Source: Dictyostelium discoideum
Lineage: Eukaryota
Reading direction: 5' to 3'
DNA: 64,000 bases
Assembly (NCBI GenBank): GCA_000004695.1
Contig: CM000150.2
Coordinates: 4,608,001 to 4,672,000 of the forward strand
Shown piece by piece: positions 8,748-11,679 of the stretch (the stretch's first letter is position 1; each line of letters starts with the position of its first letter). The notes beneath the pieces are model-generated. The model had not been told where the DNA came from. It was given only the letters and a program-made list of their open reading frames with translations, and searched no databases. The position numbers were made by a program, and so were the translations under genes.

Positions 8748-10103
8748 ATGTTTTTAGTTGACTATTATAACTATCTTTCTGAAAGATATGATTATTATTT
8801 AACATTAAGAGGTAATATATATATATATATATAGAGGCGTCAGCTTCAAATATTATTATTATTATTAATACTAATACTTTTTATAAAAAAAAAAAATATA
8901 TATGTATCATAGATGAAAGAGTATTAAATTGGCCATTAATTAATAGACCACATGAAATGATATATTTAGTTATTGGATATTTTGCAATCATATTTTTTGG
9001 TCAAAAGATAATGAAGAAACAAAAACCATTCGAATTGAGGTATCCATTAATTATTCATAATGTGGTTTGTACATTATTAAGTTTATATATGACTATTGAA
9101 ATTACATATCAAGCATATTCAAATAACTACTCTTTAATGTGTAATTCTGTTGATTATAGTGAAAAAGGTCTTGGTGTATGTATTTTTTAATTTTTTTTTT
9201 TTTTCAAAAAATTTATAACCCCCCTAACTAATTAATTAAATATAGATGGCAAAAGTATTATGGTTATTCTATTTCTCAAAGTTTATTGAATTTATGGATA
9301 CATTTTTTATGGTTTTAAGAAAAAAAGATAGTCAAATTACTGTAAGTTTTTTTTTTTTTTTTTTTTTTTTTTCTTCTTCTCTCCAATTGGACACAATATC
9401 ATGGAAGTAAACCCATCCATGTTTTGGATTTTAGGTGTATATATTTATACTAACCTAACCTATAAATATCACAGGTTTTACATGTATATCATCATTCTAC
9501 AATGCCAATGTTATGGATTATGGGAATCTGGTATGCGGCCGGAGGTGATAGCTATATTTCAGCATTAATCAATTCATTCATTCATACAGTTATGTACAGT
9601 TATTATGCATTATCATTATTTGGATTTAATATTTGGTGGAAGAAATATTTAACTCAATTGCAATTAATTCAATTTGCTGTAAATATACAAAATAATAATA
9701 ATAATAATAATTTATTATCGTTTTGGTATAAATGAATATATGTACTAATTATTTTATAATTTTATTATTATTTATTATTATTTATTATTATTATTATTAT
9801 TATTATTATTATTATTATTATTATTATTATTATTATTATTATTATTATTATTATTATTATTATTATTATTATTATTATTTATTATTATTATTTTATAACA
9901 AATACAAATAAAATTACAAAACTGGAAATTTTCATTAGATGAACCTAATTTTTTCAATGTGGTCTTTATATAATGATTGCAAATTCATTAAATGGATGCA
10001 TTGGGGTATGATTATATATATGATTAGTTTCTTATTCTTATTTGGTGCATTCTATAAAAGAAGTTATTCCCAACCAAAGAAATCAACAAAGAAAATTCAA
10101 TAA
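8748..10103 (+). CDS. fatty-acid elongase, ELO/GNS1/SUR4 family (5 exons)
   Basis: Exons 8748..8811, 8913..9175, 9246..9341, 9475..9678, 9939..10103, with canonical GT..AG and phases consistent throughout. Diagnostic ELO motifs are present: KxxEFxDT ([17 protein letters not shown]), His box [13 protein letters not shown], and TQLQLIQF. Intron 4 carries an (ATT)n microsatellite. Confidence 0.75.
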
Positions 10104-10382
10104 AAAAAAATAAAATAAAAAATAAATAAAATAAAAATATTTAAGGAAGAATAAAAAGATATCTTTGATTTGTAAATATTTGTTTAATAAACAATAGTTT
10201 TTAAATCTTTATTTTGTTTTTTTAAATTTTAAATTTTAAATTTTAAATTTTAATTAGAACTATATGCAAATAACATTAAAATAAATATGGTGATACCGGA
10301 AAAAAAAATTTTTTTTAGATAATTTTATATTTAGATTTTTATTGTTAAAAATAATTATTTAAATAATTTTGTTATTACATTT

Positions 10383-11679
10383 TTATTCAATTTTTTTTGG
10401 TTTATATTTATTATGAGTATTGGATTTATTATTAGTTGGGTAACTATTTTTATAAAAAGCACCAAATAATACCAAAAATCCCAACATATAAACTATCATA
10501 CACCAATGCATGAACTTAATAAAGTTACAATCATAATAGATACTATATGCTGATGCACTTAAATTTACCTAACAATTTTTTAAAAAAAGAAATAAAAAAA
10601 ATAATAAGTTAGATCATATATGCATAAACCAATGTATTATTATTATTATTGTTTTTTTTTTGTATATTTACAGCAAATTGGATTAATTGAATTTGAGTTA
10701 AATATTTCTTCCACCAAACATTAATACCAAATAATGCTAAAGTGTAATAACTGTACATAATGGTATGAATAATAGAATTAACCATTGCTGATAAAAAGCT
10801 ATCACCACCACCTACATATGATAGATCTAACCACCATAGGATTGGCATTGTAGAATGATGCCACACATGTCTATGAAAATGCAAAGTTTGTTAGTTTATG
10901 AATAAAATAAAATAATAAATAATAAATAATAAATAATAAATAAAATACTTACAAAACTTTATTATTAAATTTAAAAAAAAAAAATTTATGATAATAAAAA
11001 AATTATTAATAATTTAAAATAAAAAAAAATAAAATTAAATTAAAAATTATTCTAAAGTACTTACATGTGATTTGATTATCTTTTTTTCTTAAAACCATAA
11101 AAAATGTATCCATAAATTCAATAAACTTTGAGAAATAGAATAACCATAATACTTTAGCCATCTATATTAAAAAAAATTTTAAATAATTAATTTATTTTGT
11201 TTGGTTTTTTTTTTTTTTTCAATTTTTTAAGGATTAATAAATGAAAATAAATAATAAAAAAACATTATACATACACCAATTCCTTTTTCAGTATAATCAA
11301 CTGGGTTACATATTGGGGAATAATCATTTGAAATTGCTTGATGTGCAATTTCAATTGTCATATATAAACTTAATAATGTGCAAACTGCATTATGAATAAT
11401 TAATGGATATTTCAATTCAAATGGTTTTTTATTTTTCATTATCTTTTGACCTAATTTGACAATTATTACATATCCAATAATTAAATAGATCATTTCATTT
11501 GGTCTACTTAATAATGGCCAATTTAAAACTCTTTCATCTAATTTAATTAATATAAAAAAATAAGTATCAATGGATTGGTCCCCAAAAAAAAAAAAAAAAA
11601 TAAAAAAATTAAACTGACCTCTTCTTGATAAATAATATTCATATCTTTGAGATAAATAATTAAAATAATTATCGATCAT
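10383..11679 (-). CDS. fatty-acid elongase ELO-family paralog (5 exons), convergent with 8748..10103
   Basis: Exons 11679..11619, 11537..11275, 11161..11061, 10870..10672, 10568..10383. It has the same motif set as the + strand paralog ([38 protein letters not shown]). Four intron positions are shared with it; the intron 3 position differs by one codon. The exon 3 donor has to be GTACTT, because a canonical GTAAGT lies 4 nt upstream but would break the frame. Confidence 0.6.

Follow-up and report, generated by a model that had tools for sequence, protein, structure and literature searches.

The two ELO (GNS1/SUR4) genes that converge in this part of the Dictyostelium discoideum AX4 genome, gene A (8748-10103, forward strand) and gene B (DDB_G0271066, 11679-10383, reverse strand), raise the question of how gene B keeps its reading frame across the intron ahead of the exon that encodes its catalytic histidine box. 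The window analyzed here, i.e., the whole stretch of 64,000 nucleotides, contains both genes, with stop codons 279 bp apart (about 280 bp according to an earlier note on this sequence). Gene A has five exons (8748-8811, 8913-9175, 9246-9341, 9475-9678, and 9939-10103) and encodes a GNS1/SUR4 family protein of 263 aa that is identical to XP_002649204.1/C7FZW5 of D. discoideum AX4; its His-box junction (ACT|gtaagt...cacag|GTT TTA CAT) lies in phase 0 and reads ITVLHVYHH. The ELO motifs that the note had listed are present in both proteins (...(Y/W)HH, HT(V/I)MYSYY, and TQ(L/I)QLIQF), and the gct|GTAAAT donor that it found in both paralogs is indeed common to them, in the context tttgct|GTAAAT. 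It was also right in describing a tail-to-tail pair of ELO paralogs whose intron positions are common for the most part. The intron tally had to be revised, however: the gene models of the note contain four introns each rather than five, and three of the positions rather than four are identical (R|D in phase 1, G|M in phase 0, and FA|xN in phase 0), the fourth being off by one base, in phase 0 in gene A and in phase 1 in gene B.

It is at this fourth position that the frame is lost. Exon 3 of gene B (11065-11161, reverse strand), which also contains ATGGCTAAAGTATTATGG, ends with ...AAT CAA ATC ACA T in phase 1 and is followed by the donor GTAAGT (11064-11059), and the His-box exon (10672-10870, reverse strand) starts with A CAT GTG TGG CAT CAT (HVWHH). 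As had already been recognized, splicing from acat|GTAAGT (intron from 11064) to the acceptor catag|ACATG (exon from 10870) results in a frameshift and a stop after 13 codons, the frame being 4 nt short, and a shift to the donor GTACTT 4 nt downstream (11055-11060, reverse strand) restores it, giving ITCK|HVWHH. The note saw in this either an atypical donor or a gene drifting toward a pseudogene, and named a sequencing error as a further possibility. The latter could be ruled out, as the 4-nt deficit and the TTTT island described below are common to six independent assemblies.

A third option had been overlooked. At 10958-10947, within the supposed intron of gene B, the sequence reads AG|TTTT|GTAAGT, and inclusion of the four Ts would produce ...NQIT-FL-HVWHH, a sequence colinear with those of the paralog and of all orthologs, while keeping the perfect donor after exon 3. 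We consider it probable (roughly 85%), on the strength of sequence comparisons, that the odd splice site of gene B reflects a 4-nt exon, TTTT (10953-10956, reverse strand), and that gene B encodes a working fatty-acid elongase of the ELO type. The putative microexon would complete T|TT (Phe) and give TT|A (Leu) directly before HVWHH. The corrected model consists of six exons on the reverse strand (11679-11619, 11537-11275, 11161-11065, 10956-10953, 10870-10672, and 10568-10383) and has a clean open reading frame of 269 aa. The microexon is flanked by intron 3a (10957-11064, 108 nt, GTAAGT...aataaAG), which is the old intron, and by intron 3b (10871-10952, 82 nt, GTAAGT...aaACTAACaa...ttttcatAG), both with a perfect GTAAGT donor. 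Their lengths are bracketed by those of the 33 other introns of the A/B family genes that served as our comparison set (62-316 nt), among which GTATGT (10) and GTAAGT (8) are the commonest donors and AAG acceptors occur in four. Polypyrimidine and branch signals just before the aaAG of intron 3a are weak (ttaataataaag).

Enumeration by hand of the internal exons that can be formed from the splice-site lists of the 194-nt interval returned two AG...GT segments that restore the frame, one of 4 nt and one of 103 nt; the latter was rejected because it would leave an upstream intron of 13 nt. The four Ts are a segment bounded by AG and GT that is needed for the frame between the neighboring exons, and AGTTTTGTAAGT is found just once on both strands of the 64-kb window, at the microexon (expected 0.03; chance expectation within a 190-nt target approximately 5e-5). 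Moreover, six genomes of three species (AX4, a second D. discoideum strain, two D. cf. discoideum, and two D. citrinum) carry an unchanged 13-nt block, AG-TTTT-GTAAGTA, in an intron that has otherwise diverged and accumulated indels; the sole change beside it, aaAG to atAG, keeps the acceptor. The junction after exon 3 is conserved as well, with ACAT followed by GTAAGT, GTATGT or GTAGGT in all B orthologs. In the B genes of D. firmibasis (ACA T|gtaagt...ctag|TT TTG CAT TGT TGG) and D. dimigraforme (ACA T|gtaggt...ttaag|TT TTA CAC TGT TGG) the TTTT opens the next exon, so that the microexon and its splice sites are kept in the former group of species and the same four bases are fused to the following exon in the latter. 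From the anatomy of the sites, their conservation, the selection acting downstream and the fit to the protein family, we infer that the spliceosome uses both sites of the microexon.

The family context points in the same direction. With the microexon, gene B scores 227.9 bits against Pfam ELO (PF01151; gene A 224.4 bits, cut-off 27) and covers profile positions 2-240 of 242, i.e., it is a full-length member of the ELO/ELOVL elongases that also shares their KxxExxDT, HxxHH, MYxYY, and TxxQxxQ motifs. Leu stands directly before HxxHH in all 127 ELO proteins compared, Cys or Lys in none of them, and Phe is found two residues before the box in 103 of the 127. The (F/V)LHxxHH context of the His box is complete in gene B when the microexon is spliced in, since the FL part is present only then, and in an alignment with human ELOVL7 (6y7f) QVTFLHVFHH stands against QITFLHVWHH of gene B, with the same FLHxxHH context.

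Other readings of the junction have to be considered. If a single intron of 190 nt extended between the atypical donor GTACTT (11060) and the acceptor at 10871, the spliced message would read ...ATCACATGTAA|ACATGTG, in frame and with an open reading frame of 269 aa, and Cys-Lys would take the place of Phe-Leu; CK takes the place of two residues and is not the insertion described earlier. This model was adopted by two automatic annotations of further D. discoideum strains, an equivalent frame-keeping GT at position +4 exists in all six genomes, and a weak GTATTT donor is apparently used in intron 1 of the D. firmibasis B gene, so donors of this kind are not impossible. But GTAAGT and GTATGT donors always offer a GT at +4, given the GT at their positions +5 and +6, and its presence is hence uninformative. 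GTACTT lies 4 nt inside intron 3a and would have to out-compete the perfect consensus donor that it overlaps and that begins 4 nt before it; its C at +4 is found in none and its T at +5 in two of the 33 other family introns. Its product would carry CK in D. discoideum and CI in D. citrinum at the site where Leu is found in 127/127 relatives, it loses 7.6 bits against the Pfam profile (220.3 bits), and the invariant AG-TTTT-GTAAGTA island in the intron is left unexplained. We judge this donor to be unused and the single-intron model unlikely.

The current reference model of AX4 (XP_646697.1/Q55BY4 in RefSeq/UniProt) takes another route, in that exon 3 is spliced at the consensus donor and the frame is preserved by beginning the His-box exon 61 nt late, at the cryptic acceptor tatgTAG|GT (junction ACAT|GTGGTGGTGAT, NQITC|GGDSF), which deletes the His box. 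If it were right, gene B would encode a catalytically dead ELO-like protein of 248 aa, or both isoforms could exist with regulated inclusion of the microexon. The 21 residues missing from the model are conserved, however, a 13-residue part of them being identical across all B orthologs, and they fall into the downstream region for which a dN/dS of about 0.1 was measured regionwide. The Pfam match of the model drops to 170.2 bits (170 versus 228) and is split in two, and other predictors took other cryptic acceptors, a pattern of software forcing a frame rather than of biology. We regard both the truncated enzyme and the regulated mixture as very improbable. Even less credence is given to a decaying or unprocessed pseudogene, or a truncated protein, in which GTAAGT is joined directly to the His-box exon. 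It is true that direct joining of the strongest donor to the strongest acceptor leads to a premature stop, and that our searches of the literature and of JGI contigs found no expression data for gene B: no paper turned up for its gene ID, the JGI metagenome and metatranscriptome contigs scanned gave 0 matches to either spliced junction, the exact corrected protein was absent from a collection of 15 billion proteins, and there were no transcript-derived relatives among its protein matches or in its cluster. Against decay stand complete open reading frames in all five B orthologs (five species), in which no ELO motif, the His box included, is damaged. The exons 3' of the junction evolve with a dN/dS of 0.077 between D. 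discoideum and D. citrinum, 0.128 between D. discoideum and D. cf. discoideum, and 0.107 between D. cf. discoideum and D. citrinum (dS 0.23-0.68), and the range for the B orthologs over the 123-129 codons beyond it is 0.06-0.13, with dS up to >0.6. Such values are irreconcilable with a lack of translation of this frame; neither a dN/dS near 1 nor disabling lesions past the frameshift were found, and the suggested drift toward a pseudogene has to be abandoned. The strength of the purifying selection argues only that the gene B protein is used; the activity predicted from its family is a condensing (3-ketoacyl-CoA synthase) one on acyl-CoA plus malonyl-CoA.

The difficulty that this junction poses to software is evident from the public models retrieved for gene B and its close orthologs, of which there are five different ones (248, 253, 269, or 271 aa, or split), the microexon being present in none. 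Dictyostelium gene predictors either shift the donor by +4 or jump to a cryptic acceptor inside the exon, the same failure as seen in plants. For a major model organism, the model proposed here would amend the DDB_G0271066 entry of the reference genome, the present RefSeq and UniProt protein having no catalytic histidine box.

With the 4-nt exon in place, splicing of gene B could proceed as follows. Exon 3 would be cut at the consensus donor ACAT|GTAAGT, and intron 3a would end at aataaAG, from where four Ts run straight into a second consensus donor, GTAAGT; intron 3b, with an ACTAAC element resembling a branch site, would end at catAG. With just 4 nt between a 3' and a 5' splice site, simultaneous occupancy of both is scarcely feasible, and removal of the two introns is therefore presumably sequential. 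The mature mRNA is predicted to read ACA TTT TTA CAT GTG TGG CAT CAT (T-F-L-H-V-W-H-H), the microexon thereby keeping Phe-Leu ahead of the catalytic HxxHH box. Since skipping leads to a frameshift and a stop after 13 codons, inclusion would be obligatory for an active enzyme. The predicted cDNA junctions are ...AATCAAATCACAT-TTTT-ACATGTGTGGCATCAT for D. discoideum and ...ATCACAT-TTTT-ACATATATGG for D. citrinum.

Comparison across species, for which exon boundaries were placed by nucleotide alignment of each exon and manually (tblastn proved imprecise, its alignments extending across the short AT-rich introns), suggests how such an exon could have come about. The His-box intron is in phase 0 (ACN|GT) in the A paralogs, D. 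purpureum, and A. subglobosum, and in phase 1 (ACA T|GT) in the B orthologs. Intron 3b is absent from the B genes of D. firmibasis and D. dimigraforme, from all A paralogs, and from D. purpureum, A. subglobosum, and C. fasciculata. The ancestral state would accordingly have been a phase-0 intron ahead of the FL codons, which in the B lineage probably slid by one base into phase 1; in this instance of one-base intron sliding between paralogs, the phase shift in the B orthologs is compensated by one T missing past the acceptor. A second intron would then have arisen 4 nt downstream, after the split from D. purpureum, stranding TTTT as an exon, and it would be because of the one-base slide that this exon has 4 nt rather than 5 nt. 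A gain on the discoideum/citrinum branch has as its alternative a secondary loss in firmibasis/dimigraforme. Neither the closest sequenced relatives nor any outgroup has the intron to which the microexon would owe its existence, and the locus would therefore represent a phylogenetically bracketed case of microexon birth via intron gain beside an existing intron. A source sequence for intron 3b was not identified; its origin as a duplicate of intron 3a was rejected, the local alignment of the two being no better than shuffled controls.

The same species shed light on the arrangement of the two genes, which had been attributed to an inverted local duplication. That part of the earlier description was not supported: the duplication is old (A-B dS 0.64-1.0), and the two genes lie in direct tandem in D. 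firmibasis and D. dimigraforme. The convergent arrangement may therefore stem from a later in-situ inversion of gene A, although the ancestral arrangement is not polarised, because D. purpureum has one A-like and one B-like gene on separate scaffolds, i.e., unlinked. A further intron is specific to the discoideum/citrinum clade, namely the last intron of gene B (10569-10671, reverse strand, gct|GTAAAT...gttAG), which is homologous in sequence (z = 6.1) to the last intron of gene A (9679-9938). In the 60-nt window upstream of this common intron, A and B are identical at 54, 53, and 51 positions in the genomes that have it versus 50 and 45 in those that do not; in the 60-nt window downstream the numbers are 36-39 versus 43 and 38, and exon 5 next to it is only 60% identical between A and B. 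The flanks are thus no more alike, in any clear way, in the clade with the intron, as they might be after gene conversion at the level of the exons. It is tempting to speculate that the lineage of D. discoideum, D. cf. discoideum, and D. citrinum went through a local burst, in which intron 3b and the last intron of both paralogs were acquired and gene A was inverted, perhaps in one repair or rearrangement event or with introns passing from one paralog to the other through short-tract gene conversion, and that the enzyme could be switched on and off via inclusion of the microexon; this we put forward as a tentative and rather doubtful scenario. If it were true, the locus would offer a rare, datable natural example of the birth of spliceosomal introns and of a microexon.

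The closest counterparts known to us are the ultra-short microexons of plants (≤15 nt, down to 1 nt), which show conservation, reside in conserved protein domains and pervasively escape genome annotation, such as the 1-nt exons of APC11 and VPS55 or a 5-nt exon in rice (Yu et al., 2022, PMC8831610). Gene B likewise has a coding exon of a few bases between ordinary GT-AG introns with strong GTRAGT donors, which is conserved in related species and merged into the neighboring exon where one of the introns is missing, and likewise remained unannotated, with the reference compensating by wrong splice sites or truncated proteins. It differs from the plant cases in its amoebozoan host with very AT-rich, short introns, and in that the exon, predicted from DNA, is young and can be placed on the tree. 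Neither a 4-nt exon nor any other microexon of Dictyostelium is described in the searchable literature, as far as which shows the candidate in gene B would be the first of a dictyostelid. Well-supported recent intron gains are scarce too: Ma et al. (2015, PMC4683709) reported around 40 putative ones for D. discoideum and traced the source of no more than 2, and the A/B locus would add a clade-specific case, gene B not being among the gains in the searched supplementary files of that study. The introns of genes A and B resemble those gains in being absent at the respective position from D. purpureum and distant dictyostelids and in having no evident source. They differ in that up to three clade-specific introns are found here in one adjacent pair of paralogs, one of them 4 nt from an older intron and two occupying one site in both paralogs with sequence in common.

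Among the closest known ELO systems to gene B we also count EloA of D. discoideum (DDB_G0292896). A peculiarity of the B orthologs is the third residue of the His box, which is Trp in all of them (HVWHH, HIWHH, or HCWHH) as opposed to Tyr in 103 and Phe in 13 of 127 relatives. Judged by eye, the 3' end of intron 3a looks like that of the single intron at this position in D. dimigraforme.

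The two ELO paralogs of the pair were rebuilt from the sequence of the window, whose G+C content is ~20%. Gene A, on the plus strand (8748-10103), consists of five exons (8748-8811, 8913-9175, 9246-9341, 9475-9678 and 9939-10103) with the donors GTAATA, GTATGT, GTAAGT and GTAAAT, in this order, and encodes a protein of 263 aa that agrees at every residue with XP_002649204.1/C7FZW5 ("GNS1/SUR4 family protein", D. discoideum AX4). Gene B, on the minus strand (start 11679, stop 10383), is DDB_G0271066 (XP_646697.1/Q55BY4). Both proteins are full-length ELO matches (Pfam PF01151, each >220 bits) and carry all the motifs named in an earlier note on this DNA, and by family membership gene B is predicted to encode an ELO-type condensing enzyme. 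That note had counted five intron positions, although its own model has four introns, and had taken four of them to be identical: three are strictly common to A and B, but the intron ahead of the His box is in phase 0 in A and in phase 1 in B.

The anatomy described for the His-box junction of gene B was reproduced exactly. Exon 3 ends in ...AAT CAA ATC ACA T and abuts a perfect GTAAGT donor at 11064, and the His-box exon opens at 10870 with A CAT GTG TGG CAT CAT. Spliced directly to each other, the two exons lack 4 nt for the frame and run into a stop 13 codons on, while a GTACTT four nucleotides downstream (11060) restores the frame and yields ITCK-HVWHH. The earlier note therefore invoked either an atypical donor or drift toward a pseudogene, neither of which is the best explanation. 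Inside the supposed 190-nt intron we find ...aataaAG/TTTT/GTAAGTattt..., that is, an acceptor AG (10958-10957), four nucleotides (10956-10953) and a donor GTAAGT (10952-10947), all on the minus strand. If TTTT were an exon, exon 3 would be cut at its own consensus donor, the upstream intron (3a) would measure 108 nt and the downstream one (3b), in which an ACTAAC element precedes the final catAG by ~20 nt, 82 nt, and the message would read ACA TTT TTA CAT GTG TGG CAT CAT (ITFLHVWHH) in an ORF of 269 aa, colinear at every base with its gene A counterpart (ACT GTT TTA CAT GTA TAT CAT CAT). On this sequence evidence we consider it very probable (roughly 85%) that the junction of gene B holds a conserved, so far unannotated 4-nt microexon, restoring, in a functional elongase gene, the context of the catalytic motif. 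The exact protein so predicted has no match in a collection of 15 billion sequences.

Since the microexon and the donor at 11060 both preserve the frame, other criteria have to decide between them. Splicing from GTACTT, which places Cys-Lys ahead of the His box, is also how the gene is annotated in two D. discoideum strains (269 aa, ITCKHVWHH, as in the earlier note), but a GT at this distance occurs at every GTAAGT or GTATGT donor and thus tells nothing either way. The 33 other introns of ten genes (A and B of five species) never have C at donor position +4 and have T at +5 only twice, as GTACTT would require; GTATGT and GTAAGT, the types flanking the microexon, are the two commonest donors, AAG acceptors occur in four introns, and lengths range from 62 to 316 nt. 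In 127 retrieved ELO proteins, the disputed models being left out, the residue preceding HxxHH is invariably Leu and the one further upstream is Phe in 103 and Cys in none, so that Cys-Lys would be without parallel there. Against the Pfam ELO family the Cys-Lys product scores 7.6 bits below the microexon product, and the AX4 reference model 58 bits below it; QVTFLHVFHH of human ELOVL7 (6y7f) aligns to the predicted QITFLHVWHH. Splicing from GTACTT also leaves unexplained a conserved island within the intron: in the six genomes with the two-intron arrangement, AG-TTTT-GTAAGTA is a 13-nt block invariant in all six, amid surroundings that carry substitutions, indels and repeat expansions. The sole change adjoining it, seen in one D. 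discoideum strain, turns aaAG into atAG and keeps the acceptor. The 12-mer AGTTTTGTAAGT has a single occurrence in the 64-kb window, both strands considered, with 0.03 expected.

The idea that gene B is drifting toward a pseudogene was addressed by the comparison of dN/dS (Nei-Gojobori, on clean full-length CDS models of A and B from five species). Downstream of the junction, dN/dS of gene B is 0.077 between D. discoideum and D. citrinum (dS 0.68), 0.128 between D. discoideum and D. cf. discoideum (dS 0.23) and 0.107 between D. cf. discoideum and D. citrinum (dS 0.51), as low as upstream and as low as in gene A. This indicates that the downstream frame is translated and constrained, and we reject the pseudogene.

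With the microexon, two adjacent introns would have to leave the pre-mRNA on either side of four exonic nucleotides. Spliceosomal components could not sit simultaneously on an acceptor and a donor separated by 4 nt, so that introns 3a and 3b are presumably removed sequentially, by analogy with very short exons such as plant microexons (PMC8831610). As skipping would cause a frameshift and an early stop, inclusion would be needed for an active enzyme; that it could in principle be regulated is speculative. Ultra-short microexons missed by annotation are a known kind, but dictyostelids had apparently yielded none before this one, whose origin can be delimited on the phylogeny.

Protein search and cluster listing gave ten further annotated versions of gene B, from D. 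discoideum strains and close relatives, which disagree precisely at the exon 3/His-box junction. The AX4 reference model (248 aa, ITC/GGDSF) uses the right GTAAGT donor with a cryptic in-exon acceptor that deletes the His box, and one other D. discoideum strain (253 aa, ITY/LSYV) a different cryptic in-exon acceptor. D. citrinum (263 aa, ITCIHIWHH) has the same shifted donor as the earlier note. In one D. cf. discoideum genome an upstream acceptor is used (271 aa); in the other the gene is split in two, the first half ending in ITFL* where the microexon acceptor is used and the model reads on into GTAA. D. firmibasis and D. dimigraforme (263 aa, ITFLHCWHH) are canonical. The two published D. 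purpureum models, DICPUDRAFT_33776 (locus L005, 3001-4153) and DICPUDRAFT_27790 (L006, 3001-4084), run on past the donor (ITVS...) and leave out the histidine box; plain phase-0 GT-AG introns give ITFLHVFHH and ITPLHIYHH, respectively, and both are misannotations without any microexon.

The orthologous junctions suggest how the arrangement arose. The intron before the FL codons is in phase 0 in every A paralog, in the two D. purpureum genes (ACA/gtaagt...tag/TTT TTA CAT and ACT/gtaagt...aag/CCA TTA CAC) and in Acytostelium subglobosum, and is lacking in Cavenderia fasciculata. It is in phase 1 (ACA T/GT) in gene B of D. firmibasis, D. dimigraforme, D. discoideum and D. citrinum, which is, as read from the junctions, a one-base slide, with one T moved across and one T fewer after the acceptor (window 11064/11065 in B versus 9341/9342 in A; L005 ~3655-3760; L006 ~3556-3650; orthologous locus L011, 2085-2166). 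In D. firmibasis (ACA T/gtaagt...ctag/TT TTG CAT TGT TGG) and D. dimigraforme (ACA T/gtaggt...ttaag/TT TTA CAC TGT TGG) this is a single intron, and the same TTTT opens the next exon. Intron 3b is present only in D. discoideum, D. citrinum (ACA T/gtatgt...caataaag/TTTT/gtaagtac...tttatag/A CAT ATA TGG) and D. cf. discoideum (ACA T/gtaagt...aataataaag/TTTT/gtaagtat...(ATT)n...tttttcatag/A CAT GTG TGG), and thus arose after the split from D. purpureum, being either gained on the discoideum/citrinum branch or gained earlier and precisely lost in D. firmibasis and D. dimigraforme. Compared by eye, intron 3a (aaatttaataataaag) and the single D. dimigraforme intron (aaatttaatttaag) have similar 3' ends, which would make 3a the old intron and 3b the newcomer. 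We found no source for 3b, and alignment against shuffles detected no copy of 3a in it.

The last intron (FA/xN; A 9679-9938, plus strand; B 10569-10671, minus strand) was likewise found only in D. discoideum, D. cf. discoideum and D. citrinum, where both paralogs have it. Neither gene of D. firmibasis or D. dimigraforme contains it, nor do those of A. subglobosum and C. fasciculata or the two D. purpureum genes, which have a different intron ~17 codons further on. The gct/GTAAAT donor, previously read as a sign of common descent, is indeed common to A and B, but the intron is clade-specific. GTAAATATACAA and, further inside, a ATGAATATATG-CTAA-TA motif are common to all six copies, and the local alignment of the A and B introns reaches z = 6.1 over shuffles, yet in the first 60 nt of the following exon only 36-39 positions (~60%) are identical between the paralogs. 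This suggests a gain followed by short-tract transfer between the paralogs, or two insertions from one source. Up to three gains in one gene pair would be notable against ~40 putative intron gains genome-wide in D. discoideum (PMC4683709).

Nor is the idea of an inverted local duplication supported. The divergence of A and B (dS 0.64-1.0, dN/dS ~0.2-0.3) and the presence in D. purpureum of an A-like (P0003) and a B-like gene (P0004) on separate scaffolds indicate an old duplication. In D. firmibasis and D. dimigraforme A and B form a head-to-tail tandem next to the same flanking gene (L001, 3001-5506; L003, 3001-5673), whereas in D. discoideum, D. cf. discoideum and D. citrinum A is inverted and the pair convergent (window 8748-11679), the downstream flanking gene keeping its orientation in both arrangements. 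The convergent pair may stem from a secondary in-situ inversion of A (~1.3 kb) and not from the way the genes were duplicated; the D. purpureum genes, being unlinked, do not polarise the ancestral arrangement.

Long (ATT)n microsatellites lie within intron 4 of gene A (~9770-9885) and intron 3b of D. cf. discoideum (L004, ~3740-3930); repeat expansion has lengthened 3b from 82 to 236 nt in one strain of the latter, with splice signals intact, and to a smaller extent in the other. Every B ortholog has Trp as the third residue of the His box (HVWHH, HIWHH, HCWHH; gene B 10869-10855), where the 127 ELO relatives mostly have Tyr (103) or Phe (13); judging from these orthologs, this is a lineage-specific change adjoining the catalytic histidines.
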